NCBI GenBank assembly: GCA_000442015.1
Contig: KE560384.1
Coordinates: 1-64,000 of the forward strand
Length of the DNA stretch: 64,000 bases
Origin: Rozella allomycis CSF55
Lineage: Eukaryota
Reading direction: 5' to 3'
The notes beneath the pieces are model-generated. The model did not search any database. It saw nothing but the letters and a program-made list of their open reading frames with translations, and was not told the DNA's origin. Below, piece by piece: positions 974 through 23,627 of this stretch. Position 1 is the stretch's first letter; every line of letters starts with the position of its first letter. Position numbers and translations under genes: made by a program.

Positions 974-975
974 AA

Positions 976-2241: not shown

Positions 2242-2483
2242 NAATAGAGTTCTTGCACCAATAATCGAGCACTGGTGTGGGACTCAACGATACAATATCG
2301 GTTACCAGTTACTGAAAGTCTCGAAAGGGTTACATAAGCGCAATAGTAAAGGTTTTGCACTCTTATAGTTCAAACAGATATTTACCGATGAGTTTGGCTC
2401 AACATTAAATTGATAAAACGAATATTTTCTGGCCTTATGTCGGTATGTATTATATAATATCGGTTCATTATTATTTATTTCGN

Positions 2484-2758
2484 TTGTGTAATTTTAGAGA
2501 CCGTTGGCAACTTCAAAATACCGTCAACCACATTTTCTTCATATAATCTGGTCTTTGCAAACGAGTATGCAACTGAACTTGGTTCTCGAAAGAAAAACCT
2601 TTCATCCCGAGGTTTTTTCGAAGCACTTACAATGGCATTGCAAATTTCTTGTTTTTTTAAGTGTTCAGCACTTAAAAACTGATGATAATCACCGATTTTC
2701 ACGGACAAAATGTTTTTTGGAAAAAATGACGACATTCCTCAAATGTTTTGGATTTCAA
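2484..2758 (-). mobile_element. 5' part of another copy of LINE ORF1 (N-terminus MSSFFPK...)
   Basis: 2494-2579 is nearly identical to 2156-2241 and supplies an ATG at 2735; bounded by Ns at 2483 and 2759. Confidence 0.75.
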
Positions 2759-3208
2759 NTTTTGCCACCGCCAGAGGGTCCCCTTATAGCTGCGTAACTT
2801 CCAACTTATCAACTATTTTGGCTGCATTCGTATAAAATTTTTGACCTATCCCGTAGGCCGTATGTCAAATATGATCGGCTGCCGTCCCTTTTTAAAAAAA
2901 GATTCACNTCATTGTAATCGGAGTCGTGGCCTAACATGCGTATGTTTGTTTATATTTTGATAAAGAAAAAAACTAAAATTCAATTTATATACCAATTCAA
3001 ATGATATCCGCAGAGAAGAATAGAGAACTTCTATCTAAAGATAGAGAGAATTTGGAAGTTGCAGGATCGAAATTAGTAAATAAAGATAATTTATTACGCA
3101 AATACANAGCACACCTGAATTTAAATGAAAAAGAAAAGAGTTTAATAATATAATTCGCTTTTACATTGACCCACAATATCGCGGGTCAGAATTTGTAGTG
3201 TTGTTGTN

Positions 3209-3619
3209 GAATTCCTGAAAAAGATTTTCATATTTTTCTAACAAATTATTCTCAATAAGAATAGTATCAGGCAATTTTTCACGCGTTGACACTATCAAAA
3301 AATGGTTCAATCTGTCGCTCCATGCGCTCGTAGAATCTTAATCCTCGTAAATTGGATAATAAATCGTAAGATAAAAAGAGTAAAAACTGAGGTCGATTGA
3401 GAATGGATTATCCTCCGTTCTATTTATTGATATCTCCTTAGAGTTTTATATGTGGGTCTTTTCTATAAATAGTATCCCTTTCTATAATTAGTATCAGAAT
3501 AGAGATCCGTCAGGATTAAGAGATCCTTTGAGAGTTATGACTCCTCTCTTTGATAATTATTCTAAGGAAGGTGGGATGAGAATCCCTCTATGAATTGGGA
3601 TGAGAATCCCTGGTACGAC
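3209..3619. mobile_element. Possible LTR fragment
   Basis: Ends in ...GGTACGACA (TGTCGTACC on minus), contains TATAAATAG and a direct repeat TGGGATGAGAATCCCT; no internal genes seen. Confidence 0.25.
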
Positions 3620-4744
3620 ACAATCAAGTGATTCACTACTTGGACAGTACCTACTTATTATTCAAACTTTGTGCGTTTTGATTTCGTTTAGCCTTCCGCC
3701 CGCAGTAGCGATATCATTCAACATATCCTTCCATGTATCTCTATCCCATAAACAGTATTGGCTAAACGGAATAAGTTCTTTGTCGTCATCTTTGATCCTT
3801 GNCTAAATTTTTTTTACTAATTAAAAAAAGAAAATTTTAACCTTATCATCAACCAATTCTCTAGAAAATTTATGCTGGAAGAATGATAACAAATCTATTT
3901 ATATCAAAATTTGATAAAGACATATCTTCTCCATGCTCNAAAATTTAAGAAAAAAACTAAAATTGATGACAATATTATATTTCTATTATATCCTGAAAGA
4001 TTTTGAATAATCCTTGGAATATTTGGAAATTTAATACTAAAGTTAGAAAATGGTTCTCAGTGATCCCTTTGAGTTGAAGATCTGTTTAACGAGACAACAG
4101 CGTGCTGGTTTCCTTCAATGTCTCCAAGTAGGCTTAGAATATGGCTTGAGCCAGTTAATGTCGCGACAAGTCCCAACATTAGGTCTTGGAGGAACAAGTG
4201 GAATAAGACTGGACATTATTAGTGAAACACCAGACAAAGTACTATTGAAAGCCGACATGCCCGGAATNGCAAAAGAAAGGTTGGTCGAAAAATCAAATAG
4301 GTTTTTTATGCTAACCAATGACTTAACATATGAAATTTTTTTGAAAGTTATAGCTGTATTTTTTGAAGTAATACAGTTATCGTAAAAGATGGATTTTGGC
4401 TTAGAAGAAGCTAAAATCATTTTTCCGAATCTTTTCGACGGTCTAATTTTGATCACAATATATCAAGAAATTGTGCAAGCTGTTCTCTGAATGTACCTTG
4501 TGTCGCACCTAGCCCATGGGGGGACACCTGTAGTAAGGTCGGATATCAAACTCCAGNCATTTGTCTGTGGAATCGACAAATGTAATTTCAAGTCGCGTTT
4601 TTATGCTAATTAATGACTTGACTTGACATCCCATGCGATTTTTTTGAAAGTTATAGCTGTATTTTTTGAAGTAATACAGTTATCGTANTCTTACTTTGTA
4701 AATAGTATATTCTATTTCTGTATATCTGTAAACATGAAAAATAT

Positions 4745-7573
4745 TTATGATTTATTTAGGTTGGAATAAACTTCTTGAATAGATGAAATTAAATGGAGAT
4801 ATTCTCTCTTTCTGGGATTTTCTTTTGAGCAAACAATGTCATTGTAAATCAAATTGATCATGTTGGTAAAATCACCCAAGCTGAAATATTTGCAATTAGA
4901 CTTTGTGAAAGCTATTATTTCTTCTGGAAACAATGAGAATAACGAATAAAAAGATTTAGCTTTTTCAATCTGAGAAACAGGGCAATGAATAAATCGATTA
5001 AGGGAATGCGTTAAAGCGTTTAAATTTTTCATCATTTTTTCTACGCCATAAAAATTCATTCTTTTGATGCAAACAATGTTGTTGATAAAAATTGTTGCAA
5101 TTAACGAATCGAGATCGGTATGAATGAATCTATAATTAAAACCTCGACTACTTACTTTATTTCGTCATTTTCAAGACAAGAATAAATTGATTCCTGAAAA
5201 TTTTCAACGGATTTTATTAAATGTTTAATGTTTATGTCAGGTTCCGAAGCAGGCTCGTCAAGATGATAACTCCCTTGCTTAAATGATAAATCACAAAAAT
5301 ATAGAATGTGACATTTCAATTCAAATTTTAAAGTGCATAAATATTTTGATGAAATGTTTTCAGTCCTTTTGATGGATTCCTGCAAATTTCTATATCAAGT
5401 TTAGGACATTTCTTACTCTGAAATTGGAAGTTTTAAATTTATTGAATCTTCGCTATTTATTGGATCTAAAAACGTCGGCGAAGCCAAAGTTAAACATTTC
5501 TGAAATTGATTCGCGATCCAATTTAGATTTTTGTATAAATGTGCAATGAATTTTAGTTTATTGTAATCTGTCAATATTTCACTTTTATGAAGAGTTCTAT
5601 TTCCTTTATTCTGAAACAAAAATTGATTTTCGTCATCTTGATTATTATAAAGGCTGGCTAAATTCCCGCTAAAGACAATGAAGACCTCATTTCCATCTTC
5701 AGTGTTAACAGTCAAATCATGAGATACAATGCCTTTAAACATCAATTGAATAAAATTTTGGTACTTTTGTATTTATCAATAAAAGATTCAACAAGATTCT
5801 CAATCGCATTACAAATCAATGCTGTGGCAGAGTCTTTCAGAACGTCTACTTGACATATGAGACCATTCAAGCGATGTATTATTTTCAAAAACGGTAAAAT
5901 ACACTAGAAAACGCATTAAAATGAAAATACGTTGAAAAATGGCGGAGAATCAACTTTAACGAGAAATGCATCAGACCCTTGTAAAATTGCATTCAATTCA
6001 TGATTCATTGATTCTGTCAAAAATGGGCAATATGAATCCAAAACAATTTCATCTAAAAATGTTTCTAATTTATTAAAATCGTCCCCATCATCCTCGCTTT
6101 GAATTAGATGTGATGAGTCTGCTTACATTACAATAATCATGTGGATTGAGAGAATAAACTTTTTGATGAGTGAATAAACAATTGGAATATTATTGAATTT
6201 AGCAATAATTCTGTTTTCTAATTTATTTACGTTTGATTTTCTATCAAAATCAATTTGTTTAATAGAAAAGAAAGTCTTTAACAATTATTATAAAGTTTTA
6301 CTTTTTTGGTCCTACATGAATTGCCTTTGATAATCTTTTCTTCTAAACGATTGAAAACATTCGTAGAATCATCAACCACCTCACAATCTTTTTGTGCTAA
6401 AAATAACCCCAAAAAATATATTATCAATTAAAATTAAATTGCATCATTTACTTGATCTTGTATATTGATCCAAACATATGATATGGTCGTCATTGGATTG
6501 TCTACCTTGCATCCAATAAATTCAACAACGATTTTCAGATTTTGAATGATCATCTGAAACTTTGTAAACACAGAAGTAAAGAAATTGAACAAGTTTGAAG
6601 TACTTTCATCTCCCTCACTTTGTAAATTTCCCACTTTATTGAACCCCTTTGAAATCATCGATTCCGTAAAGTTCTTCAAGGTAACATTAAAGAAATCGTT
6701 CATTTTCTATTTATTATACAAATTTATAATACTCGATCAAGATCATTACTCTTATCCAAGATGCTGAAACATTCAAGCAAACATAACAAATATCCTCTAC
6801 ATTTCTCATCTACATTTCTTTATTAATCTCTCTTATAAAATACCCGTCGCATTCTGGTATCTTTTCTCCTAGAACGCTCATGTTTAATTCTGTGGTTAAT
6901 TCTTCAAAAATTGTCTTTGTTTAAGTATCACTTTTATTACATATCCCAGACTGTTCATATTATCCTTTAATGTTTTTAAAATATCCAGTGTTTTATATTC
7001 TTCGTCATTCAATTCTTTTATTCCTTTTTGATACAAGTTAACGGCCACCAGAAAGTCCCTCTTACTTAATTCATTCCTTATTCGATCAGGGAATTTATTT
7101 AATCGTTCTCTATCTCAACCATCACACAAACTTACATTTTCTCTAATATTGAAAGAATTTGATTGTTTTGTAATGATTTTTGCCACATTGAATACAAATT
7201 CTCATATGAATTTCGAGTCAAACATATTTTTCCCTGATTTAATTGAAGCCTTACTCGGTCTAAATTGCTCAAACATTCATTCATTCTGTCAATAACAACC
7301 TATCACGATTAGGATTAATTCGTACAGAATATGACTGGATAGAATTGTGAAATCCAAAATGATACTCATTAACAATAATATCCATAACATCCTCCATTCT
7401 CTCATACATCTCTTGGATCTCCCTAGCTCTGGATTGTTGAGGATTCAATAACATATCAATAGCTAAAGGTATAGGGTTATACTCTTTATGAAAAATAAAA
7501 GTCTTACATTATCTGCCAGCAACGGCTTAAAGTTCTTTTCCACCAAAGAAAACACTTGGTCCACAAAGTCCAT
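4745..7573 (-). CDS. SEC8: Exocyst subunit Sec8/EXOC4 (multi-exon)
   Basis: Spliced motifs YNPIPLA, IVNEYHFGFHNSIQSYS, ILEKIERLNKFPDRI, VWINIQDQ and C-terminal KRMNFYGVEKMMKNLNAL resemble Sec8; about 12 introns of 26-32 nt. Confidence 0.8.
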
Positions 7574-7648
7574 TTACTGAAAATTCATAATAAAGACAAT
7601 GAGAATATATGTTAACAACTTTGCATTAATTATTTATTAAAAATTTTA

Positions 7649-8392
7649 TTAATATCTGCGTCTGTCTCTAGACCTTGACCTTCTTCTACTCTCAGTCCTT
7701 TTAGAATCACGAGGAGAAACTGAACGCCTCCTATCCCTCCTTGAATCCTTGAAAACTGTATCCTCAGCCTTTTCGTCACTCTTTTTCTTTGTTTTGTCAC
7801 TTTTCTCCCGTTTTCGAGACTTTTTAGGTATTAAGTCTTCTTCTTTAATCAATGCATAGCCTTGGTCCCCTTTAGCAGAGAAGCACTCATTAGACAAATG
7901 ACCCTCTCCTCCACATCTCTGACATTTGGTATTATAAATCGCATCTGCTTTTGACGCTTGATCTTTGGAGTCTGATATTTTAGGTTTTTGTCGTCGTCTC
8001 TCTAATTCTAGTCCAACGTTGTTTGGATCCAAATCAGTACCATCCCCTTTTTTCTTTGCTTCTTATATATTTTACCCTGCTGTATATGTTTTATTGACAA
8101 AGAAACCCTCTTTCCTTCTATCTTGTATATAGATTTTGAGTAGTTATTACGCTTATGATTTTACAAAACATTGTATCGCCAAGAGATAAAACATCCTCCA
8201 CTTTTTCAATTTTATATCTCGATATTTGTGATAGCGGCAAGATGCCTGGAATATTCGAACAAATTTTCCTACCTTTAATTTTAAATCCGAGGATTTCAAC
8301 TAACGCACAATTGTCTTGAATGTCAACCACCTTTAATTAAGTTGTTACTTCATTACTTTTCCCCTATATACTCTGTAAAGCTTTAACGACAT
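7649..8392 (-). CDS. ZCCHC17: S1-domain/CCHC nucleolar protein pNO40 (ZCCHC17-like)
   Basis: S1 domain, DLDPNNV motif, CQRCGGEGHLSNEC knuckle, K/R/S-rich tail; 4 short introns. Confidence 0.85.
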
Positions 8393-8550
8393 CAGAATGT
8401 GGCTGAACTGTTTACCTCTCAAACTACAAAAGGAGAAATCATCCTGATTGTTGGCTAAGAAAATTGGTGGTAGTAAGTTTTAAAGTTTCTCCCTTGATTA
8501 TGGAGTTCAACCGTGGCTAGGTCAAATATCACATTCATATTGCAACTCAA

Positions 8551-9193
8551 ATGTGCCTCACATCGCCTTGTAAAACTCTCTTTGAGTGGTTAAAGGCACT
8601 GATTTGTAAGAGAGAGATTGAAGTCACTATCCTTGGACTTCAAAATTCCGGAAAGACATCTTTTGTAAATAGCATGGCAGTAAGTCATAGTGTATCATTT
8701 CATACAAAGAATGAAGAATTTCAGGAGATCAGTGTTCCAACAGTAGGATTCAATGTAAGAAAGATCAAAAAGGGATATATTATATTGAGAATTTGTGACG
8801 TCGGTGGTCACCAAAGATTTAGGCCCTTGTGGGAGAGATACTGCCGAAATGCACAGGCTATAGCATTTGTTATAGACTTATCAGATAATCGCTCTTTATT
8901 GTTAGCAAAAGTTGAGTTTCAAAATCTTCTGGAAAACGTAAACCCTGATGTTCCCATTTTAATTTTGGCGAACAAATGCGACCTTGCAAATTCTACAGAA
9001 GTAGATGAAGTTAAAAATATGTTGTAAACACTGTATAAAATGCATACGTAGTGTGTGCTTAGGAACACAACATGCGCGACTGGACTTTATTTTAATATCA
9101 TGCAAAACTTTCTACAATGTTAATTTGGCCGCTAATTGGCTATCAAAAAACTACAAAAATATTAAAATCGATAAATTAAACGTTAAAGTTTAA
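8551..9193 (+). CDS. ARL8: ARL8-like small GTPase (divergent)
   Basis: GLQNSGKT, PTVGFNVRKIKKG, RFRPLWERYCR and NKCD motifs; introns at 8680-8709 and about 9024-9051. Confidence 0.85.
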
Positions 9194-10215
9194 TAATAGT
9201 TATTTCCTTCGACAAGGTGCAAAATATTTGAAACTCGTGCGTCAAAGACTTGAACTTTATCATCTTTTTCATTATTGGTAGTTCTTTTAGTCATTGAATT
9301 CCATTCATGAGTTTTATAGTGTTGTTTAAGGTTGTCTAGCCTTGCGAACATTTTTCCACATCCAGCCATGGAACATTGAAAGAATCGTTCACCCGTGTGA
9401 GTCAAAAAATGTCGTTTCAGATGTTCGTATCTTTTAAATGCCTTTCTACAATTTTCTTGCATGCATACAAACTTGCGGTCGCTTTTTTCATCCACATAGT
9501 GTGGAATGTTCTTAGGTGCGTTAAATTTAGCATTAGTAGATGTAATTTGCCCTGGTTTCAAAAAAAATAAGTTTTCATCCAAAGGCCCCTGAAAAGCTTC
9601 TTGGCTTTCTGGTTTTGTATGCGCTTGAGGGCCTATAAGCTGATCAAGTTTGAATTCAGAACTAGATTGGAAAATTTCACCATATGCTATCGATTCTCTA
9701 CGCTTTCCGAATGATTCCAAATTTTCATTAACATTGGCCGAAGGAAAAGAGCTGAGGTCAATAGAATGCGACCTTCCAGACCGGTAGTCAGTATAATAAT
9801 TGATGACTCTCTCGCTTCGATGTATTGCATCATTAACCAGTTTTTCAAAATTGACGCTGTTCCAAATGAAAACTTTTTGCTTCTTTTGAGTGCGAACGCA
9901 CCCTTCCTTATACAGGTACATTAGGAATGGCGACTTGGCTTCTTCCAACGTAGCATGAACACCAGGTTTAAGGGACCTTAAGTCGCTGAAAATACCTTCT
10001 TCAAATTTTTTTAGTGAATTTATTGGCCTGTTTGTTGCTTCCATGTATTGAAAACAGACTACCTTAACAATGTCAGCACCACTAATGAAATGCATCCCAT
10101 TCCAGAGTACACATGATATCGTTTCATCATTTGGAAGAGTGAATTTTCTTACAAGTTCTTCCCCGCTCCATTGGTCCGTTGCACATTGTAAAAAATGAGA
10201 CAGACTTGAGAACAT
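9190..10215 (-). CDS. STE12: Ste12/SteA-type transcription factor (STE domain plus two C2H2 fingers); may extend to ATG at 10291
   Basis: KKFEEGIFSDLRSLK and CVRTQKKQKVF STE motifs; two C-terminal C2H2 fingers with HTGER linker. Confidence 0.92.
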   Translation of the reverse strand: MFSSLSHFLQCATDQWSGEELVRKFTLPNDETISCVLWNGMHFISGADIVKVVCFQYMEATNRPINSLKKFEEGIFSDLRSLKPGVHATLEEAKSPFLMYLYKEGCVRTQKKQKVFIWNSVNFEKLVNDAIHRSERVINYYTDYRSGRSHSIDLSSFPSANVNENLESFGKRRESIAYGEIFQSSSEFKLDQLIGPQAHTKPESQEAFQGPLDENLFFLKPGQITSTNAKFNAPKNIPHYVDEKSDRKFVCMQENCRKAFKRYEHLKRHFLTHTGERFFQCSMAGCGKMFARLDNLKQHYKTHEWNSMTKRTTNNEKDDKVQVFDARVSNILHLVEGNNYY

Positions 10216-10438
10216 CGTTATTATATAAGTGGGAATAACCAACCAGATCTTTATATGTCCCTAAATTTGGCTCGTCGGTTCTGTTCAGCATGGCGTAGTA
10301 TCCAATCAAGAGTACTTGTGCCTAATAATAGAATTTTTTTGGAAACTAAAAAACGATTTATTTATTTGATTTATGCAAAGCGAAGAAGGATCATAGCCGC
10401 TGTAAAAAAAGAAATAATAGCATTTGTTTACGACTTTC

Positions 10439-12051
10439 ATGGCCACTAACAAAAATTCTGGCATTGCAAAATCTTTGACAGACAATTTCATTGAAATATC
10501 ATTAGGGAGAGATAATTTTATTAACACAAAAAAGGATCAAAATCACAAATTGGAATCAAAGGATGCAATAGGAGACGCAAACATCAAAAGAAATCCGAGG
10601 TTGCATGATGCACAACCTATATCTCCAAGGAAGAAACCGAACCTTGGAATAGATACGTTGAACATTTCTTTTGGGAATCACAGTTTCCATCAAGTTGGTG
10701 AAAGCACTAATTTTGTATCTATTAGCCCAATCACTGGATCCCCGCTTCAGGTTCAAAGTCCAAAATCGCCTATGTAAATTTATGTTTATTTCACTTACTC
10801 AGTGTAGTAAAATCATCTTTAGATAAAGGTATTTCTCTGACACGACAGAGGTAAATGGGTCTTGGTGCTTCTTGATAGAAATCTACCACCAAAAGACAAA
10901 GTAGAAGAAGCAAGACACATAAAAGAGTATAATAAACTGATGAGTAATGCAAGAATGAAAGAAAGGCTTAAAAATGAACGCATTAAAGAGCTTGAAACAA
11001 AACGAGAGCAAAGAATGTTAGAGGCGTTGAAGAAATGGAGAAAGTTATTACCGAATTGGTCCAATATGTAATAATGGAAGTTATTTTCATGTTAGAAGAC
11101 GAGACCATAACATGATAAAGTTGTGGGAGATTGGACTCCCACCAAAAGTCAGGGGCTCAATTTGGATGCTTGTTCTAAAATCGGGCGAATCTATAGGTAA
11201 GATATTGAGATTTGTTTAATGGAAGAGTTTAAAGCACTTGTACAATCTGCATTGCAAATTTTGGAAAATCAAAAGAACCACAGTACAGCTGGTATTGAAC
11301 GAAAATATGTTCATGACGTTAAAAGCCTGGAAATTGACATTGCCAAAACACTCCCCGAGTTGAATTTATTTCAAGTATCATGTCCAATGTATGATGATCT
11401 CAAAGAAGTTTTATTGGCGACAGCTCTTTCGTTGATAAATTATGGATACGTAAATTGAAGCCTTGTTTATGATAGAAAGCGGGAATGGCTAATCTAGCAG
11501 CGATGTTTCTCTTGAATATGAACAAGGAGTGTGCATTCGAATGTCTTTGTAGATTATTTGAGCGCAATTTTTTTCAAATTATACATTCTTCGGATGCTGA
11601 TAAAGTAATTTTTGAATTGATGGATAACTTTTGACTGTTCCCCTTTTGAAAGTATATAGAATTGTATTTCAAAAGAACATTCCAGATCTCTATAGTGCCT
11701 TTATGGCTCTTGAATTGCACGAAAATACGTATCTTGTTAAATGGTAAGTAAATTGAAATCGCAATAAAGGCTTGTGTCAATGTATACTACGCTTTTCCCA
11801 TTGGAAATAAGCAGTCGAATTTGGGATTGTGTATTTTTATATGGCGAAGTGTATCTTTTCAAAGCTGCACTAGGTAAGATTTAATATTGCGAATAGTAGG
11901 GTATCTAAAGTTGATAAAACCAAAAATTTTAAACCAGAGTCTGGAGTGGATTATGCCCATGTTGAAAAAGAGTCTTGCCATTGAAGAAAATCAACTATTT
12001 GAAAAAATCAATAGTATTCGTATTGATGATGATGCGTTTTGCGGATTTTAG
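10439..12051 (+). CDS. TBC-domain protein, TBC1D12/14-like (multi-exon)
   Basis: NLPPKDKVEEARH, GLPPKVRGSIW, MFLLNM and FPLEISSRIWD motifs after removing 26-29 nt introns. Confidence 0.85.
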
Positions 12052-12202
12052 TTGACTGTAATAAATCAGAGTCGCTATCTATAATTTACTGGGAGTGGCA
12101 TTAAACATGAGGATTTTAATATTTTTTTAACATCATAACATCATAATATTTTTCTAGTTTAAGCGCTAAAGTGTTAATTTTCCGTTAAAGGAAACCCCTG
12201 TC

Positions 12203-13954
12203 ATGAGTACTGTAGAATTTGAAAGCCAGTTAAAAGAAGCCCTTTCACGCAACCCCCATGATTTTAGTGCATGGGAGCAGTTATTGCAAGTGAACGAGAC
12301 CAAAGTAGCGAAAGCGTTAGCTGAAGCGCCTAGAACAAAGATGACGATAGATACTATGCCAGAGTCACTTAGAAGAGCGATTCAAGGAACACAAAAAACA
12401 TATGATGAATTTCTGGGAAGATTTCCGTATTGCTTTGGATATTGGAAAAAGTATGCCGAGTTTGAGATGGTACACGAGGGAGATGTGAAGGCGAGAGAGG
12501 TAAAAGTATTTTTTTAAAAATAAATCAGGTGTATGAGAGAGGGGTTGGAGCGTTTCCGAACAGTGTTGATTTGTGGATTCAATACTGTACGTTTGTGACC
12601 AAGATAACGAAGAATCCAACTGAGGTGAGGGGGTTGTATGAAAGGGGAGTTGAGTGTATTGGATTAGATTTTATGGCGCATTCATTTTATGATATATATT
12701 TGGAGTGGGAGGAGAATCGTGCGATTGAGCAAAACAGTTATTCGAGGACGTTGTCGTTGTTGGATAGACTGATAAGGATTCCGATGCAGCAATACCAACG
12801 ATATTATGAAAGATATCAACAGATAGCGAATGTGAGAAACGCGAGGGAAATGGTGTCAGCGGAGGAGTATCAAGTGTTGAGAAAGAGGGTTATTGGAGAG
12901 ATGAAGACGAGACAAGTGAAGAACATAGTAAATAGAATGTGAAATGGTTATGAATAGAGAGATGATGCTGTGGATTCAGAAATCAAACAAATTGTGTTGA
13001 ATGACAGAGCAGGGGTATTTTCTATTACAGAAGAAAAAGTAAAGAAGAGATGGCAATTTGAAGAAAACATTAAGAGGCCATATTTCCACGTGAAGCCATT
13101 AGATGAAGGGCAGATCATCAATTGGAATAAATATTTAGATTTTGAAGAGAGCGAAGGAGACGCCGTGAGAATAATTTCATTGTATGAAAGATGTTTGATT
13201 TCTTGTGCGTTTTATGAAGAATTTTGGATTCGCTATTCCAAATATTTGATCTTGATTCAAGATTATGAAAGAGCAGAAAATGTTTTCATTAGATCTGTCT
13301 ATACTTTTATTCCAGAATCTCAACCAAAATGTTTAATTAGTTTTGTCTATTTCAAAGAAAGTCAAGGTACCATGTGGCATAGTTATTTAATCTAGGTACC
13401 ATGTGGCTGAGTGATCTAATCTAGGTAAAATAAATGAAGCGAGAGAATTATTGAATTATTATTTACAAAAAAGACCAGGGCAGTTGCAAGTATTAATTGA
13501 ATATGCCAACTTTGAAAAGAGGAATAAATCTTTTCAAGATGGATTGAAGTTTATTTCCAGTTGGTTGGAAAGCGTTGATGAAGTTTCAAAGCCTTTTCTT
13601 TACTCCTTCTTGGCCAAAAATATTTGGATTTACAATAAAGAAATTAACAAAGCAAGAGAAATGTTCATTAAAGGAATCCAAGAAACAACCGATAAATTTT
13701 TACTCTTTCAATACATTCAATTTGAAATCACAAATAACAATCTAGAGTCAAAAGAAAATGTTTTGAATATTTTTAATTTAATCAAAGATTATTCTTTTCC
13801 AATTCACATCAAAAAACAAGTCGTTGAGAAAATTTGTGATTTTTTAATAGATTGTGGCTGTGCAATGAAAGAGTAAGAAATTTCATGTTCTATTTTTAGA
13901 ATTTCTGATTTCGAAATTTCCAGTTTGAAAGAAATTCTAAATTTCAAAAATTAA
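12203..13954 (+). CDS. PRP39: U1 snRNP HAT-repeat protein Prp39
   Basis: FPYCFGYWKKYA, IGLDFMAH, IKRPYFHVKPLD and LYERCLISCA motifs. Confidence 0.93.
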
Positions 13955-13989
13955 AAGTAAAATTTTAAATTAGTTTATTTCTCAATTCT

Positions 13990-15803
13990 TTAAATTTGTC
14001 TTTGAACTCTTTCCACTTTGTCTTGTTGTTGAATTGCCAATTTCTTAAGGAATGGCAATCCCTTCTTCTTTCTCTTTCCTTGATAGGCGGCATCAACAAT
14101 CTTCCATTCTTCTGGCAGAGGATCTTTACTTTCCCTTGCAATTCTTTCCATCAATTCCCAATTCAACTCCACTTTGATTTCTTCTTCCTTTACTTCTTCT
14201 TCTTTCGTCTTGTTGTACAAAGACTCTTTAAATTCTCTTAAATACGATTGAATAGCGAATGCGTCATCTCTCTCTGCTCCAATCTTCATTACTCTCTCAA
14301 ACGTTCTTGGTGAATATCTGTAGCCAAATTCATACAGCTTTCCATGGATTGAATAGAAAAGATGCGCTTTGATTCTCCTAAACTTTGCCAGCATCGTCAA
14401 ATATTTTATTATTGTTTCATCACTAGTCCACGTATCAAACGGTAACAATGTTGTTCTAATCAAAAACTTTTCCACAGTTCGCTCCTTTTTCTTTTCTCTA
14501 TTCTTGAACAAACTTTCAACCAAACTCGTCAACTGTCCATGATGACTCTTCTTACGCACATCATCACACTTTTTAAACACATCCTCTATCTTGTCCAAAT
14601 ACTGATTCACAAATGCAAACAGTATCTTGTTCTCACTCACAGTCTTGAAATTACCTAACATCAATCAACATCTCTCTTACTCAACAATGTCAACATTCTC
14701 TCAAACATCATTCTTCTTCCTAGCACCCCTGCTTTACTCATCACACTAAACCCCGTACCTGACTCAGCCATCAAATCAATCAATTCCACATAACTCTCCC
14801 GCAAAACATTCCCTGAATTAAAATACCTGGAACTCACAAACAAACACATCACTTCCTCTCCCGTTAGGTATCCCCCATCATAAAACTTTCGGAGTCCATC
14901 CAACACTTGCTCTCCACTAACTTCAGCTTTATCAACAAACGCTTCCATTATATCCAATCCCCTAACCATATCGCCATTTTCTTTCATCTTTTCATTCATT
15001 TTCACATTCCTCAACGCATTCTCATACGTGTTGCTTGTATTCGCAAAAACATCAACAACATATTCCGCTGGCAAATAAATTCCATCTTTCATGGAATCCT
15101 CAATCAAATTTATCGCACTCTCATATTTGCGCTCAGCTACAAACCTCTTAAGGAATTCTTCATCAACAGTTCTTCTTTTCAGCCCCTTGAATCCTTTCAT
15201 TGCAATCCTCTTGAACTTTAAGAAATCAAGATTTGTTCCAGCTAAATGAACAAAGAACTCTCTTCCAAACTCTTCTTCAGTTACTTGATACTTTGCGTAA
15301 TCTATCGATCCAATCACACGCGAAAATTCATCAGAATCTTTTTCAGCCAACATTATCAAATATTTGCTCAACAACCACTTGTCTGCATCATACCCAAGCA
15401 TCATTCCATCAAGTAGCATCTTCATGGCATAATAGTCATTGCTATCCTCTTCACTCATACCCTCTTTCTGTGAATATTTCAATTCAATCATATTCTTCAC
15501 CTCTTCATCTGTTGGTCTATTCACAAGGAATGTTAACCCCTTAACACTCATCCCAGATAGCACTGCACTGATTGTATACTTGTAAAATGGAAGTGTAATT
15601 AAATTTTTATAATTTCGATTAACATGCTGGAACAAATTAAATGCTGGTAACGCTTCCCTTTCATGCGCGTATTTAGATATAGTCGTTAAATATGGGTTGT
15701 CTTTTAAATCGTACAATGTAGAATACAATTTTGGGGCATTTACAGTAAACTTTGGGGTGCAAAGAACGCCTCTCTTTAATACATTGCGAGTTATTAACTT
15801 CAT
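13990..15803 (-). CDS. Hypothetical helical-repeat protein, possibly mitochondrial (2 exons)
   Basis: Two long ORFs joined by a 26-nt GT-AG intron near 14655-14680; basic N-terminus MKLITRNVLKRG resembles a presequence. Confidence 0.55.
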
Positions 15804-15882
15804 TGTATTACCCCTGCAATATCCAGTTATGGAAGGACCAAATAGCAAAACATGCAAACAAATTAAAGTGTAATAAAAATAT

Positions 15883-18309
15883 TTATAAAGTAATATTAAC
15901 ATCTCTAATTTCATTCACGATAGAACTGGCTTTGCGGTAGACTTCAAGCATAGTCTTGCACTTTGCTCTTTCTTTGGCTATCAATTCATCTTCTTGCAAA
16001 AGTTCATTAAAAAAGTCTTCCTTATAAAGCTCTTGAACAAGCTGATTTTGAAGCATCTCTTTGCTATAATTTACTAGAAAATGCATTATTGCTTTTGGTA
16101 CAGAATCTTGAAGGTTTTTGCGCACGACGTTAAAGTATGATTCAATAAGAGATTCTATGTTTGATTTAAAGAAAAAAGGTACTGATAAGTTGAGTTTCTA
16201 CTTGCTCCTTTTCAGACATGTTGCTTGTGTCTTCTAACACAGATGGGGGCTTATGTAACGGATTAGTCATTCTTACTTGTTCTAACTCTAAATTGGAAAG
16301 AGTCATATCCATCAATTCATCGTCTAAAACTCGAGTTTCTTTTTTCACTGGCGCCATAGCCCGAACAGGTGAAGACATTCGTTTATTCTTTATATGCTCT
16401 TCTTGATTATGATTCACACCAAATAAATAATGTAAAAATCCACCTTCTTGGCCTTTATTGATTCTTCTTCTTGCCTCTGCTGTAACTGGAAGGCCAATTG
16501 ACCCTGGTAATTGCGTTGAATTTGTAAATTGCGGGTCAGTGTTTTCATCAGCAACAATTCTTTCTTTAGTGGGCTGATTTGTCAAAAATAATGTATCTAC
16601 CTTTTTCTCTAGAGTCTCAGTTCTCTTGCTTTCGTGCATTTTTCCCAAAGCTTGTATTGCAGCTGCGGCACCCATAAAGTCTGGATGGTTTGTATTAATG
16701 TACGCAAGCTCAATTCTAACCAAATTTTCAATCATCGAACTGGTCTCATTTAATCTATTTTTAACCAGTTCGCTAGAAGCATCAATGACCTTTTTGTGCA
16801 AATTCGGAAACCTAAATAATTCCTATGTGGAGATAAAAATTGAATTTACCATTGATTCACTTTGGTGAAGAATTTTAATCAGTTCATCGTAAACAAGCTC
16901 CATACAGCGCATTCCTGGATATTCTAATCGTTCAATTTGCCTCTTCACGAGAATCTCAAATGATATTTCAGGCACGAATAGGCATGACCTAGGACCCTAA
17001 ATTCAGTCATTTTTTTATTAATACAGTTGAATTACGAATAACAGTTCTGATATCGTTTATACTTAATCCTCCACAAGGGTCAATATTGTATAACGCGTTT
17101 CTGTAAATTTCGTTAAAAATGAAATTAATGCGCGCGCCGCCACACCTTTTGAATTAGTTAAATAATCTTTACAACTCGCTTGTTGAAATGTTTTTGGAAG
17201 TTCCATCCACAGCGTCACAAAAGTCATTTGAGAATTTTGTTATCAATCTCAAAAGCAATGTACCCTATTCTTTCTTTTAATGCATCATTACTCTATGGGC
17301 ATTCCCTTGGAAGTTGGGGTCGCCATAGCCCATTAATTCATGTTGTGTGCTTACTACAAGACTATTTATCTTATTCTTCAATTCAGGCAACCGATCTCTG
17401 ATATGTGCAACCAATATTTGATTTAAAGATCTCGCCAAATAAGCCGAGCCACACCGATGAGCGATACCTCTGTATTGCGGATGATGTCGAAAAAATTCTA
17501 ATTCTTTTTGCATAGCGTCTATCACATTTTTTTGTTCATTTATATCTTTTTGACTTCTATTAACAACCCCGATGAATCCCAATTTCAACTTAAAAGGACC
17601 TTTATTGCACAAAATATCATGGGCACTTGTCCCCTGGTCCATTAAATCCAATTTGGTTAAAACACCAATCGTTCTTAATCCTTGTGGATCAACTTCCCGC
17701 GCAAATTTTAAAGACTCTGAATTGACAATATCTATATTAGCAGGTGTCACAGCCAGTAGAATCGAATTAGGGCGCGAAGAATATTCATAAATCATTTCTC
17801 TGATTTGTTGCTCAATGTCATCAGGCTGATCTCCGACTGGAATCTTATTATTCAATATTTTAATTTTTTACTTTTGTTATTCCTGGGAGATCTACCAGAG
17901 TTAAATTCAACACTTTTGTGGAATAAATCTTTAAATGTATAGGAGTCTTTGATATTCCTTTATTATTACCCGCAATTCTCTGTGTTTCCTTTTCAATTTC
18001 TTTTCTTATTTCATTAAAATCCGTGTATATTAATTCTGGGCTGTGTAAGAAGACGCCCCATTCTTCAACTCCTGCCATATTAATAGCATTTTGATATGAT
18101 TCGTTTATGAGCTGCAACACTAGAGGTCTCCTAGTAACTATATCGTTGCCTCTTGGAAGAAAATCCCTTTGGACAAGGGACTCCAAAACGGAAGACTTGC
18201 CACTACTTTGAGAACCTACAACTACGATTTGGGGAAGATCAATAGGGTCGTGGGAAATAACATTAAAAACATCTTGCAACTTGTTTACAATAGGTATTAA
18301 ACTTTCCAT
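15883..18309 (-). CDS. DNM1: Dynamin-related mitochondrial fission GTPase Dnm1/Drp1
   Basis: [38 protein letters not shown] and a C-terminal GED; 6 introns of 27-28 nt. Confidence 0.9.
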
Positions 18310-19089
18310 TTTGTAACTGGCAAATCGAAAATCGGAAATTCACAATTCATATTGTTCAAACTATTGTTTTTTGAATAAAACCATCATATAAGGGTAGAAA
18401 AGACTGTGGAGAAGGGATGATTCAGTGAAATCCCTCAATCAAAAAACTTTGGTTGCCTAAAATCTCTATGGTATCGCCACAACTGCTGATGTAAATAGAA
18501 CCAATTTGGAATTTATTCTTACTTGGGCATAAATCTCAACTAAGTAAATGAACGAAATTCTTGGGATGATTAAACAAATTTATTTGATTGATTGATTTAA
18601 GTAATGTCTTCACATTCGTGGCAGTGAATTTTAGAAAATTTTTCTTTGAAAACACCAATTAACTCAGAATGTATCAGTCAAATTAAATAATCAATTCTCT
18701 CTTGCATCAATCAATGGATCTTGAATTCTTTTGCGAAAGTCTCCCAACGAGCCAACACTATTCCAAGATTAAGAGTTAAGACATGATCTTCGAGTCATCA
18801 TCTTTCTTGTCATTGAATTGCTTCAACCTTATTTTAAGAAACTGTCTAGCAACGATATCGTTTATGCTCGATAGAACACCGTGATAAGTTAATGAATGTG
18901 GTACAGGATATAAAATTGGAAATATCTTTGTAATTTGCTCACAAATTCAAAAAGGAATCATATTTTAAAACTTTGTTGTGTGACACTGACTTCCAATTGC
19001 TAATGCTTTCCAATTACACCTATTTTACAATAAAATAGAAATGGAAATTTTTAGTTTCAACTTTCTTAGTTTGTTTATTTTGAAATTTC

Positions 19090-20594
19090 ATGACCGTTGT
19101 TGTAAGCTTTGGAAACAAACTATTTCGGAGAAATATATACTTTTCACTATTCACAATCGCTTCATTTGTTATTTGCTTGGCATGGTATAATTCACGAGCG
19201 GTAGATGATATTCATTCAAATGAAAATGAAAAGTAACTCGATATTTATTTTATATCACCAGTATTAATCCAATTAATTCCGTGGTTGTTGAAATTCAGGA
19301 TATAATTAATAATCAAGAAGGCATAGGTGCGATTTCAAAAGAATATAAATCTACGGACATAACGGATTTGGCGAGGTCATCATTTTTCTGCTTTGATCAA
19401 AAATCTAGAAACGCTAGTTGCCATTTTACCAACGTATGTGTCCATCCGACTCATGGGCCAATGTTATTATCTGCCAATCTTAGTGAATTGAGTAGAAACG
19501 ATGTGTTCATAACAAAGAACCCGATTTATGGTATTAATGAGAGAGAAAAAATGAATCCATTATTGCCGGGCGTAAATTTGGTGGCTGCGAACACTTGGGA
19601 CGACCGCTACTATTTTCCAGCCGTTCTACATAACAAACAAGATGACCGAAATTCTAGAAAAATGGATATCAATGAGTATCAATTTGAAATGATTTATGAT
19701 ACTGTCTTGCTTGTTTATTCTGAATACAGTTGGTATCATCTTAGTCATTACATAATGAACCTAATTAGGCCAATGATTAATATTGTTTTAAACAATAAGG
19801 AATTAATTGAACAACAAAATTTCTTAACTGAATTTCAAGAATTGGTGAATATAAATGCAAGTTTTAGTCCATATTTCTTTACAGAATCAATGAAATGGAG
19901 GACTACCGGGTATTTCTATGCGATTTCACGACCTGCATTTTCACCTCATTTCTTGGTGGATGATTTTTATATAGCCGATTTGTCAAATGTTGTTAAAAAT
20001 ACTTCTTTTTCAGATAATAATAAAGTACGGTGCTTTCAAAAAGGAATTGCAGGGGATTCCAGTTCGTTTCAAAGAATTGAGTGGGGAATTGAAAGATGGT
20101 TGTTAGTCAAAAATAAAATTTTGGACTATTTTAAAATTATTCGCGATGAACGGCAAGCAAAGACTCAGATTCCTCATTGTATTGTAGTTCAAAGAAGAAA
20201 GACCAGGGTTGTAAAAAACATGGACGAGTTAATTAAAAGACTACAGACTAAAATAGCTATTAGATTGGTGGAATTAGAAGACATGAGTTTTACCGAGCAG
20301 CTGCAAATGTTTTCAAGATCGAAATGCCTCATTGCCGCGCATGGTAATGCATTAGGCAACATGATATTTTTACAAACGCGTCCGATAGTATTTGAGCTGA
20401 CTCTTGGAATCAGTGACTGGTTTTGGACGATGGCCAAGGAAATCGAGTCGGAATATGTGTATTTAGAATTTCATTCAAAGGATTTTGGATTACCTGAAGA
20501 AGTTGGAATGCCTATAAAAGATAGAAATTTCATTGTAGACATTGACCGCGTAGAAGAAGCTTTGACGTCTAGACTCTCTTTGTTTGATAAATAA
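19090..20594 (+). CDS. Glycosyltransferase family 61-like type II membrane protein
   Basis: N-terminal TM exon, then a 29-nt intron; C-terminal EQLQMFSRSKCLIAAHGNALGNMIFL motif. Confidence 0.75.
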
Positions 20595-20622
20595 ATTGTA
20601 AATTCAAGAGTTAAAATTTTAT

Positions 20623-22065
20623 TTACATTAATTGTGAGCTTTCGGAACGCTTTATTTTGTTTCTTTGTTTAGAAAATAAAGAATTGAAACTTTTAGACCT
20701 TGGGACAGTGGGATATTCCAGGTTAGGGAGAGAAGGTGCCTCCATCAAGGAAGTCAATGGAATAATCGAATCATTTACATTAGATGTGTTTAAACCTATT
20801 GAACTTCTTGTCTTTGTAGGGCTACTCGTCTTGGTACTTATAGTAGCGTATGCATTGACTATGGACAAAGTCGAACTTGTCTTGGAAAGTGACGTTGCAG
20901 GCTTCCTTTCAAACATTGCAACTTGTCTTTCATCTTCAGTATCCCAATGCCGTTTGCATAGCTTATAAATGATTGGCACATGATGATCGCCCCTGGTCAT
21001 AACCTTGCCACGCCTCACGCAGCATTCAAAATATGGTCCCCCGCAAAATGTACATTCATTGGCTGTAAGAATGTAATCTTTTAAAATATCGGGAAGAAAT
21101 TTAATTATCGGCAAACTATGTCTTATAATTGACCGAGCACAAAGTTCCTTTAGAGATGGTGAAGCAAAGAAACATTCAAAGCCAGGCATAACTTCAAGTA
21201 AAGGGCATTCATCAAGAGAAAGATAACGTAGCAAATGAAGTCTCGAAATTTCAGCAGGTAAAAACTCTATAGGATTTCTTGAGAGGTCCAATGTGGTGAG
21301 CTTTTCTAGCTGGCCGATTTCTTGGGGTATTTCACGGATTTTATTCCCATCCAAACAAAATACGGATAATTCTTTTAAAGCCACGATAGATTTCGGAATT
21401 TCTGTCAATTTGTTGTTCGAAACTCTCAATTGTTGCAACTTTTTCAGAAACCCAATACTCTCTGGAAGTTCACTCAAGTTGTTTTGACTTAGCGTCAAGA
21501 CGCTCAAATTTTTCAAATATCCAATTTCTACCGGCAATGTTTGAATTTCATTGCAGCATAATTGAAGAACTTGTGCTTGCTTTAATAGCCCTATATTAGA
21601 TGATAATCGAGCTAAATTCTGAGAACACATTCCAATCTTCACAGTAGATGATAAACTCTTAAAAGTAACGGGCTGCAACCTGACCTTTTTAGCGCGCTTT
21701 CTTTCAATGTCTGGCTTTACTGATGATAATTTAGTCATAATTTCAGTAAGTTCCTCAATATCATTCACTTTATGCAGCCTTGATATCAATTCATTGTCAA
21801 GTTCAATTGGATTTTCAATTGATCCGTCGGTATATGAATCCTCCTTGTTAAAATGTTCCACCAGATATTCTTTAGGGAGTGGGACATTCATATCCTGATG
21901 ATTACATACAGCAGGCAGTGAAAATGACCTTGGCCTTCCTGTTTCGTCGTTATCAATTTCAGTCAATCCTCTCAATTTAATCGTTTTGATTTTACCTGAT
22001 ATTGGCGATGGTATAGAATATCCAAATACAAAATAATCAAATTGTTTGCTACTCGAGACTCCCAT
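20623..22065 (-). CDS. Leucine-rich repeat protein with BC-box-like and Cys-rich C-terminus (LRRC58-like)
   Basis: LRRs, PSLKELCAR, CTFCGGPYF; MGVSSS N-myristoylation motif. Confidence 0.75.
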   Translation of the reverse strand: MGVSSSKQFDYFVFGYSIPSPISGKIKTIKLRGLTEIDNDETGRPRSFSLPAVCNHQDMNVPLPKEYLVEHFNKEDSYTDGSIENPIELDNELISRLHKVNDIEELTEIMTKLSSVKPDIERKRAKKVRLQPVTFKSLSSTVKIGMCSQNLARLSSNIGLLKQAQVLQLCCNEIQTLPVEIGYLKNLSVLTLSQNNLSELPESIGFLKKLQQLRVSNNKLTEIPKSIVALKELSVFCLDGNKIREIPQEIGQLEKLTTLDLSRNPIEFLPAEISRLHLLRYLSLDECPLLEVMPGFECFFASPSLKELCARSIIRHSLPIIKFLPDILKDYILTANECTFCGGPYFECCVRRGKVMTRGDHHVPIIYKLCKRHWDTEDERQVAMFERKPATSLSKTSSTLSIVNAYATISTKTSSPTKTRSSIGLNTSNVNDSIIPLTSLMEAPSLPNLEYPTVPRSKSFNSLFSKQRNKIKRSESSQLM

Positions 22066-22148
22066 CGGTGTTTGTTTGTTTTTGTTTACAATTTGTAAAT
22101 GAGTAATAATACGCTATTTCAGGACAAATGCAAACCAATTTGGAAATT

Positions 22149-23627
22149 TCAAAACGATTTATTACTATTTTTTCGTGACATGAAATCGCGTTGACTTGGC
22201 CATGGATGATACGACCCTTTTATTCAAAATTTAGTGAATTACCAAGGTAGCTTTCGCCATCCCCTGCGCGCTCATGTTTAATCGGACCATCTAGATATAC
22301 CAAGTCAAATCCACCAACTTTAGGCCTTTCTTTCTTGTCGTACAAAGGGAATCTATAAATAAAATCAAAGTTGCCTACTTCTTTTCCATGTCGATTATGT
22401 CGAAACAATCATTCAGAACCTGATGCTTCAGTTCATAATCCATTTGTGTTTCGGCACTAAAAGAAGGGGACGCATTTACTTCCAGCAACCATCTTTACTA
22501 GACACTAATTCAAATTTACGGGTTCAAAGTATTGTCAATCAACACATCGTATCCGTACAATTCGAAACAATGTTTGTCTTGTATCATAACTTTTTGAACA
22601 CATAATAATGATCTAATTATCATTGCCTCTATTTTTCCAAACAAAGATTTGCACTCTTTTTCGCCGTGCTTTGTCATTATAAACATTTTCAGGTTTCGCA
22701 AGAGCCATTTGCATCCTCTTTCCCCATCGTAATTCGGTGCCGTCTTTTGGACTGCAACATTTGTGGCATGTATATACAAATTCGATAAATCTTTTGCGTC
22801 TGATGAGTAGGTAGAGTTTGAAAACCGGCAAAATCCATTTCGATGTATGTAAACCGTCAATGGTGAGTAAGACGTGACCAAAACATAAATTCTCAAGTCG
22901 AATTTTTTCCCTCCGATCAAATATGGATTGTCTATGTATTTTTGCACAATATAAGCTTCCGGCTCTATTCTTTCATTTGCAGAATTTGTCTTTGGGTCTT
23001 TCCTCCATTGGCTGATTTGACTGAGTTTATTAATTAAGAAAATCCCTTTTCCCTGCGCTTTTCCTACCGGTAAATTTGCATCATTAAAACTTTACTGGTT
23101 TCATGATCCACAATGACCCAGGATTTCTTTTAAATTCTTCTTGAAACATTGCATGCTCTTGAGGCAAGACGAAACTCGTTGAAATAAATTCGAATCTAAA
23201 ATCCTTATAAAGTATTAATACTTGGACGCTTCTTGTCTTCCAAACTCTCTTTCTATATACCGTACCATCCTTTTGACATTCTTTACAAGGAAATCCTTTC
23301 TTGTAAGCTGTTCTTTACAGTATATAGGAATTTACCTCGTAATGATTTCGGAAGTGGTTTATTCTTTGATGATCCAACAAATGTATTGTGTCGAAGACTT
23401 CATGGACCCAGAAAACATCAGCCCAGTGAAAATCCCAATCTGTTTCATATTGACCCGTACTTATCAACAATATTTGTTATCTATTACGTGGAAACGTCTT
23501 TCCAACCTCTATCTTTCATAACGTCGTATATAGTATTGTTCATGTGTGTTCTAAAACGAATTACACTGAAAACTATTAAATATCAAAGTTACGGACTCTT
23601 TTCTTCATCTTTGGCATTGGCGAACAT
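22149..23627 (-). CDS. TTLL9: Tubulin polyglutamylase TTLL9-like
   Basis: NHFRNHYELTRK, WIMKP..QGKGIF, KFDLRIYVLVTSY, FELYGYDV and WLLEVNASPS motifs. Confidence 0.85.

Follow-up and report, generated by a model that had tools for sequence, protein, structure and literature searches.

Putative introns of modal length ending in TG or CG in three conserved genes of Rozella allomycis

The DNA analysed here (the window) comprised 64,000 nucleotides (nt), positions 1 to 64,000 of the forward strand of contig KE560384.1 of Rozella allomycis CSF55, and all the coordinates given below refer to it. The window has a G+C content of about 33%, reads well with the standard genetic code and contains genes that are split by very short introns. 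Three conserved genes were studied: Sec8, encoding an exocyst protein (O9G_001373/ROZALSC1DRAFT_28888; 4745..7573, reverse strand), a TBC1D14-like RabGAP gene of the TBC family (10439..12051, forward strand), and TTLL9, encoding a tubulin polyglutamylase (22190..23627, reverse strand, with an approximate 3′ end). Each of them carries one putative intron with a strong GTAA donor and a 3′ end in TG or CG, designated site A (Sec8), site B (TBC) and site C (TTLL9). The three sites were placed by reading of the sequence in combination with a frame-linking script; an earlier reading of the DNA letters (the sequence-only reading) had located introns of this kind in the range 6425-23095, of which sites A and C form the two ends, with site B between them. 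The source of the DNA agreed with the databases, since the TBC exon was 100% identical to an entry named RabGAP/TBC [Rozella allomycis CSF55] and the Sec8 exon 99% identical to the Rozella protein P0122. The entries EPZ36932.1 and EPZ36928.1 belong to the same contig, and EPZ36932.1 (P0272) has the residues of the window at both positions where the other TBC entry, P0121, deviates.

The introns of the window were predicted with a Viterbi gene finder, for which long open reading frames of the window itself and 73 frame-linked introns served as the training set. When the intron penalty was set low, too many introns were called (277 and 273), and that setting was not retained. When no relaxed acceptor class was allowed, the predictor gave 86 GT..AG introns, 79 of which were within 22-32 nt (mean 27.6 nt, standard deviation 1.6 nt), with 24 introns of 26 nt, 14 of 27 nt, 16 of 28 nt, 15 of 29 nt, eight of 30 nt and one each of 22 and 32 nt. 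The donor was GTAA in 63 of these 79 short introns. Counted from the donor, the first AG from 25 nt onward served as the acceptor in all 79, and 13 AGs located at 22-24 nt went unused; the census comes from a predictor that carries a length prior, so that the figure of 79 of 79 is partly circular and the counts are not fully independent of the prior. The interior AG frequency was 0.035 per position, at which a free placement of AG would let only about 25% of the introns end by 32 nt, and the introns therefore appear to have an upper length bound besides the lower one. Apart from being A/T-rich, positions −16 to −3 showed no clear signal of a branch site or of pyrimidines, and they carried too little information for ranking acceptor positions; the −3 base of 76 canonical introns was T in 41, A in 24, C in eight and G in three.

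The seven longer predicted introns were a 72-nt model at site A, a 58-nt tandem duplicate, three intergenic fusions (TTLL9 with a leucine-rich repeat gene, an S1/zinc-knuckle gene with Sec8, and a membrane protein with a RIO kinase) and two in a LINE-like element. Except for the tandem duplicate, no verified intron of 33-150 nt was found in the 64-kb window. A 136-nt candidate (28041-27906) was rejected as the gap that separates two genes, candidate introns of the relaxed class at 2521, 1008 and 159 were rejected as lying within the LINE-like retroelement, and looser screens of the window for more non-AG introns gave mostly noise.

The TTLL9 gene, as modelled here, contains seven introns, and GT..AG introns of 26-28 nt account for six. 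Its product matched Pfam TTL at 1.7e-50 and was about 70% identical to chytrid TTLL9. The seventh intron, site C (GTAAAGTTTTAATGATGCAAATTTACCG, 23095->23068, reverse strand), is in phase 0, 28 nt long and of the form GTAAAG...TTACCG, that is, GT..CG. Variants of this junction were scored against a profile of 80 homologues, none of them from Rozella. Removal of 28 nt gave the highest score (682.5 bits), as compared with 677.5 bits for 25 nt and 673.0 bits for 31 nt, and the product WIMKPVGKAQGKGIFLI was identical to the form most often seen in the homologues (19 of 80), the same spacing being found in 79 of the 80. The TTL/ATP-grasp domain with its WIMKP-x5-GxG loop is present under this model. 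The first AG after the site (23064..23065) lies 4 nt beyond the CG and 32 nt from the donor, out of phase; its use would give WIMKPEKRREKGFS*, with a stop at residue 150 and a score of 202.3 bits. The in-phase AG is 43 nt from the donor, and the corresponding GT..AG intron caused a five-residue deletion (657.1 bits). A rival GT..AG intron at 23117-23090, by which SLWIMKPV is removed, scored 659.8 bits, and a cut shifted by 4 nt (AG..AG, product VRKAQ) scored 678.5 bits. The mRNA junction CCA|GTAGGA permits four drawings, GT..CG and, 1-3 nt further 3′, TA..GG, AA..GT and AA..TA; none of these is canonical, and the consensus donor is kept by the GT..CG drawing alone. A metagenome scan yielded 44 TTLL9 loci, the best 69% identical and no near relative among them. 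An uninterrupted KP-(V/I)-G-(K/R)-(A/S)-Q-G was present in all ten loci that held the region, and none of the scanned loci had an intron at site C. The 120 protein matches listed (320-2000 amino acids) did not include the TTLL9 annotation of Rozella itself.

For the TBC gene, a nine-exon model of 464 amino acids was built, as compared with 290 amino acids in the annotated O9G_001377; it contains seven further GT..AG introns of 26-29 nt. Site B (GTAATTTTTGAATTGATGGATAACTTTTG, 11605-11633, forward strand) is a phase-0 intron of 29 nt, GTAATT...CTTTTG (GT..TG). Its variants were scored with a profile made from 70 homologues; the annotated protein had served to find these and was itself left out of the profile. 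The 29-nt TG model scored 308.4 bits, followed by 305.6 bits for 26 nt, 304.6 for 32 nt, 304.0 for 23 nt and 296.4 for 47 nt (GT..AA or TA..AG), and its alignment ran without a gap across ...LFERNFFQIIHSSDADK|TVPLLKVYRIVFQKNIPDLYSAF.... The first AG after the site (11651..11652) is 48 nt from the donor, 19 nt beyond the TG and out of phase, as is the next at 55 nt; the in-phase AG is at 71 nt. The annotated 71-nt GT..AG intron scored 275.0 bits and produced a 14-residue deletion against the profile, and the same 14-residue gap was seen when the annotated protein was aligned with human TBC1D14 (PDB 2qq8). The 42 nt concerned (11634..11675, forward strand), an intron in the public annotation, are coding by homology: they encode TVPLLKVYRIVFQK, which can be aligned both with the family consensus (...lkvfevllkenlPklY) and with human TBC1D14. 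After the last of the conserved upstream residues, the GT at 11605 is the sole one before the in-frame stop is reached; no GT..AG pair retains both conserved flanks.

The sequence-only reading had also expected that gene predictors would mis-model such genes, and this was borne out at site B by the 71-nt intron and the 14 conserved residues lost with it. The annotated TBC protein as a whole scored 218.4 bits with the same profile against 308.4 bits for the nine-exon model; a match of the TBC domain to PDB 2qq8 was obtained at 2.5e-21. Besides the 71-nt intron, the annotated protein starts about 170 residues later than the model, and its 41-nt intron at 11729-11769 (P0121/P0272) takes the place of a better fitting 26-nt intron at 11744-11769 (forward strand, GTAAGT...AAAG), with loss of YLVKW, for which the family consensus is YLldWllTlF. 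The domain matched the TBC/RabGAP family and lacked both catalytic fingers: within 11226-11604 (forward strand) DIAKT has K in place of the arginine-finger R of the family consensus DxxRT, and GYKAGM has A in place of the Q of the profile GYVQGM. Judged by these substitutions, the protein is likely an inactive pseudo-GAP.

In Sec8, matched by Pfam Sec8_N and Sec8_C, the predictor found about 13 other GT..AG introns of 26-32 nt. The candidate at site A (GTAAATGATGCAATTTAATTTTAATTG, 6451->6425, reverse strand) is 27 nt long, in phase 0, and reads GTAAAT...AATTG (GT..TG). Its removal keeps the frame (QDQ|IIYFLGLFLAQKDCE...). The sole in-phase AG is 72 nt away from the donor; when all phases are considered, the first AG from 25 nt onward is the out-of-phase one at 55 nt (6397-6398). 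Both public annotations (P0122/P0273) excise the 72 nt, so that the 15 residues IIYFLGLFLAQKDCE are absent. The 45 nt at stake (6380..6424, reverse strand; exon in the TG model, intron in the annotated one) are open in frame, with a GC fraction of 0.244 and a codon log-odds of +1.16, and the predictor preferred the 27-nt TG intron over the 72-nt GT..AG intron when the relaxed class was allowed. In the comparisons with homologues, the Pfam Sec8_C match ended at the site A junction both in the annotated protein and in a read-through version (X at two stops), the alignments with PDB entries passed over residues 190-526, including this region, and a word search for Sec8 homologues retrieved Rozella's own protein alone. 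The 27-nt model is favoured because the window holds no other verified intron of 33-150 nt except the tandem duplicate, because the 72-nt model has to skip the AG at 55 nt, and because the same kind of long annotated intron is wrong at site B. By frame and by analogy, the TG model at site A is thus clearly the more probable of the two, and the Sec8 annotation is probably also mis-modelled.

As a length control, the 13 GT..AG introns of the TBC and TTLL9 models were each varied by ±3, 6 and 9 nt. The profile score was maximal at the true AG length in eight of the 13; the remaining five lie in unconserved parts, where the score was flat or drifted. Sites C and B gave peaks of the same shape as the control introns, with margins over the next-best length of +5.0 and +2.8 bits, respectively. 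As judged by the homologue profiles, the conserved proteins at sites B and C require the removal of exactly 29 and 28 nt, and no GT..AG pair suffices. The best explanation is that these are normal short introns cut at a terminal TG or CG, presumably by the spliceosome. We infer that site A behaves like them and that the terminal G is needed.

The three sites agree in several respects. All are in phase 0, their lengths (27, 29 and 28 nt at A, B and C) lie within the genome's own intron distribution, their donors (GTAAAT, GTAATT and GTAAAG) begin with GT, and the pyrimidine at −3, the G at −1 and the purine at +1 correspond to the canonical context. The deviation is confined to position −2, the ends being TG, TG and CG, with the length fixed by homology at B and C; the next AG follows at +28 (A), +19 (B) and +4 (C), in each case out of phase, so that its use would cause a frameshift. 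U12-type introns have the consensus donor /RTATCCTT and the branch site TCCTTAAC. The three donors do not resemble the former, and TCCTTAAC does not occur in the three sequences. The claim that a TG or CG 27-29 nt from a GTAA donor restores the frame thus held at all three sites; the accompanying claim that the family spacing is restored as well was upheld for B (308.4 bits, gapless) and C (682.5 bits), and at A the frame alone was seen.

The correctness of the DNA letters was assessed by comparison of positions 6000-23500 with Logan contigs of other sequencing runs, 64 differences not being among those listed. At site A, a contig of run X1 (6000-9172) had a single difference, at 7967, and one of run X2 (6000-7798) had none. 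At site C, the contigs of X1 (22406-23500) and X2 (22376-23500) were free of differences. Site B was spanned by an X1 contig (10275-11864) with six differences and three gap letters, all elsewhere; since it differs from the window at 11706 and 11723, it is no mere copy of it. Run X4 covered sites B and C, with 7 and 14 unlisted differences there, and was uninformative for both. The word depth of the X1 and X2 contigs at these sites (A and C, and B in X1) was about 230-680. Contigs broke or differed where variants exist, for instance at 11865-11929, and not at the three sites. Because the contigs of other runs match, an assembly error at the sites is very unlikely, in line with the expectation of the sequence-only reading that three independent errors all striking the −2 base would be unlikely. 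Among the DNA runs there are just two coded organism labels (A and B), and a loss of acceptors private to the cultured strain could therefore still account for the letters.

Among the alternatives, the one that survives best, which we nevertheless consider unlikely, is that the sites are tandem NG/AG acceptors, where the downstream AG would be recognised early and the second step would take either the TG or CG, with a productive outcome, or the AG, with a frameshifted one. The sites would then be alternative, and possibly regulatory, instead of constitutive. An AG is found within 28 nt downstream at every site (C +4, B +19, A +28), 28 nt being the limit reported for human TG-AG tandems, and the −3 pyrimidine and +1 purine agree with the context described there, as far as the accessible part of that paper goes (PMC2374985). 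At site C in particular, the AG at 32 nt together with the first-AG rule makes a mixed outcome, as in the human tandems, a serious rival. Against this, an AG within 28 nt is common enough at the interior frequency of 0.035 per position, the AGs of sites B and A lie 48 and 55 nt from their donors, far beyond the 22-32 nt of the 79 canonical introns, and CG acceptors fall outside the human class.

A shade less probable again is that an ancestral AG has been mutated at −2 in this strain, with splicing moved to the next AG and with frameshifted or shortened products, which would make the genes incipient pseudogenes or, at A and B, leave tolerated in-frame deletions. The first-AG rule (79 of 79) predicts the use of AGs at 55 nt (A), 48 nt (B) and 32 nt (C), the public annotation gives A and B as GT..AG introns of 72 and 71 nt, the two organism labels among the DNA runs may denote one strain, and the TBC protein is already without both catalytic fingers (K for R, A for Q). 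This explanation needs, however, three changes in about 35 introns of 17 kb, each at the same one of the four essential positions; apart from these the genes are intact, and they are well conserved (TTLL9 scores 682 bits, with about 70% identity to chytrids), Sec8 being one of the core subunits of the exocyst. With the 71-nt model a conserved helix is lost, at a cost of 33 bits. By the short-intron rule the annotated models of 71 and 72 nt are outliers, and both must skip the out-of-phase AGs at 48 and 55 nt, in a window where the tandem duplicate is the only other verified intron of 33-150 nt.

A non-GT donor combined with a canonical AG is very improbable. It would shift the cut at site C by 4 nt (AG..AG) and make site B a 47-nt intron, TA..AG or, in the alternative drawing, GT..AA; the frame is kept in both cases, with scores of 678.5 bits for C and 296.4 bits for B. 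Both scores are below those of the GT..NG models (682.5 and 308.4 bits), KP-V/I/A/T is followed by G, A or S and never by R in the 79 of 80 homologues that show the motif, and a consensus GTAA donor would be given up for AGTTTT or TAATTT, which is still non-canonical. The least probable explanation is a sequence artefact, a miscalled base or a collapsed heterozygous site at −2, for which the 15 single N of the window (11 of them at 2242-4688) and the haplotype-like contig sets seen in places, such as 11865-11929, could be adduced, but the X1 and X2 contigs run continuously through A and C, and that of X1 through B, with no listed variant at the sites.

We thus consider it fairly probable that the three sites are U2-type introns of modal length with a strong GTAA donor, whose functional mRNA is cut at TG or CG. 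Several observations weigh against this interpretation. Human TG acceptors function only beside an AG and never as the sole site, according to the part of the study consulted (PMC2374985). At site C an AG follows after 4 nt, and 32 nt is the length of one canonical intron, so that the first-AG rule, partly circular as it is, predicts the use of this AG and a frameshift. Site A is without homology support and has an in-phase AG at 72 nt that is used by the public annotation. The two organism labels may stand for a single cultured strain, and three single A-to-T or A-to-C changes of an ancestral AG would give the identical pattern. Three sites are also too few to establish the G at −1 as a requirement. 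No RNA run was among the sequencing runs listed for positions 14000-23500, and a comparison of the metatranscriptome X13 with positions 6000-23500 yielded only chance pieces of 18-29 nt that ran on into sequence unlike the window.

In budding yeast, the choice of acceptor is confined to a set window of distances downstream of the branch point, with Slu7 and Prp18 as second-step factors, and the last G of the intron pairs with its first G, which would explain why the −1 G is retained at the three sites. Unlike the Rozella sites, yeast introns still need YAG, and mutants at −2 are strongly impaired. In Oikopleura, Fritillaria, euglenids and dinoflagellates a measurable share of the introns departs from GT..AG; there the departures are mostly at the donor or at both ends, whereas the Rozella sites keep a strong GTAA donor and deviate at the −2 position of the acceptor alone.

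The human TG-AG tandem 3′ splice sites (Szafranski et al. 2007, PMC2374985) share with the Rozella sites, in the portion of the report at hand, the U2 type, the GT donor, the −3 pyrimidine, the +1 purine and an AG within 28 nt. The human TG is used as an alternative only, at about 0.01% of the candidate TGs (PMC2374985, same portion), whereas in Rozella the conserved protein would be obtainable through the TG or CG alone, in two or three of about 82 introns in 64 kb; the Rozella sites further differ in their intron length of 27-29 nt and in that one of them is CG. Introns of about 25 nt are known in Paramecium and Nyctotherus (PMC5014332), and introns under 30 nt in myxozoans (PMC13644364); such ultra-short systems have in common with Rozella a very narrow range of lengths near the physical minimum, implying tight spacing of the 5′ site, branch point and 3′ site. 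Rozella is unlike them in belonging to the fungal lineage and in using the standard genetic code, and the excerpts of these sources available to us contained no statement on non-AG acceptors. For Rozella itself, Whelan et al. gave two putative introns of about 30 nt in S23 without microsporidian motifs (PMC6349667), and Lim et al. 2.5 introns per kb (PMC8476143); nothing further on Rozella splicing or RNA-seq appeared in the sections seen of these two papers or of PMC6190962 and PMC6699826. Within the partial coverage of the literature search, confined to main texts without supplements, there was no report of non-AG acceptors or of a transcriptome of Rozella, and only the size of about 30 nt and the intron density were mentioned.

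The constancy of the −1 G, the −3 pyrimidine and the +1 purine fits a tolerance at −2, and it fits three substitutions of an old AG equally well. It is plausible that the acceptor is chosen largely by distance, as the sequence-only reading had proposed, since the lengths fit a ruler, in a set of introns that was obtained with a length-aware predictor; that the acceptor might need only its terminal G is a more tentative idea, with three sites as the basis. A possible mechanism would start from the length of nearly all R. allomycis introns, 26-30 nt, and from the little information in the sequence before the acceptor. Given this near-uniform length and weak signal, we propose that the 3′ cut may be set mainly by the distance from the 5′ splice site or the branch point. 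Within the distance window AG would normally be taken, and a YNG|R site with another base than adenine at −2 could serve as well. The factors that check the −2 adenine, such as the U2AF small subunit and second-step proofreading, might have been lost or relaxed toward the intron-poor Microsporidia. In its full form, in which the Rozella spliceosome measures instead of reading the acceptor, the second step acts at a fixed distance with the last G sufficing, a few percent of the introns (hundreds genome-wide) end in TG, CG or GG as their only acceptor, used constitutively, and the factors checking −2 are lost or relaxed, this proposal is tentative and should be regarded as doubtful.

Some further features of the window were noted. 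The 58-nt intron (13367-13424, forward strand) is a tandem duplication of a 29-nt unit (GTACCATGTGGCATAGTTATTTAATCTAG and GTACCATGTGGCTGAGTGATCTAATCTAG), with a GT and an AG in both copies, and the X1 contig has no gap there. Its host gene, read by eye only, is HAT-repeat/Prp39-like, and removal of both copies is needed for ...KESQG|KINEAREL; the donor is recreated once the first copy has been excised, so that splicing could proceed in two rounds. An intron of an Arl8-like GTPase gene (8682-8711, forward strand, 30 nt) is in frame and free of stops (GTAAGTCATAGTGTATCATTTCATACAAAG), and is undetectable by checks based on open reading frames; its removal was judged necessary by eye against the human ARL8B sequence. 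A LINE-like retroelement occupies 1-2750 (reverse strand), with a CCHC-knuckle open reading frame followed by an endonuclease-type one that runs past the window edge, and a piece of its N-terminal part is repeated (2475-2738 and about 2283). An intronless gene at 9190-10260 (reverse strand) encodes a STE (Ste12-like) domain (7.7e-42) followed by C2H2 fingers, the type of Ste12 of filamentous fungi, here in Rozella.

Variation among the sequencing runs was seen in a few places. The variant clusters at 11865-11929 and 12052-12117 were represented by two contig sets, with a depth ratio of about 40:60 in both X1 and X2, and resemble two haplotypes; small indels occur at 12069-12100. In the X1 and X2 contigs, 18476 is followed directly by 18745, and 268 nt (ends CC..CC) between a dynamin gene and a GT61 glycosyltransferase gene are missing; this is an intergenic deletion variant or second haplotype. 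In X4, a 9-nt insertion (CTTCTTCTT) is found at 14192, in a coding low-complexity stretch of the gene 13990-14664.

On this interpretation, the Rozella annotation is wrong at genes of this kind, as exemplified by the annotated TBC protein, in which a conserved helix is missing and whose score falls short of the corrected model by 90 bits, and intron statistics built on this annotation would be affected as well. If the interpretation of the three sites is true, a non-AG dinucleotide as the sole productive acceptor in a few percent of the introns would be an exception to a highly constant eukaryotic rule, located in a lineage adjoining the Microsporidia, where the splicing machinery is dismantled. 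Rozella would then offer a natural system in which to study the role of the −2 adenine and the way in which the 3′ end of minimal introns is fixed.

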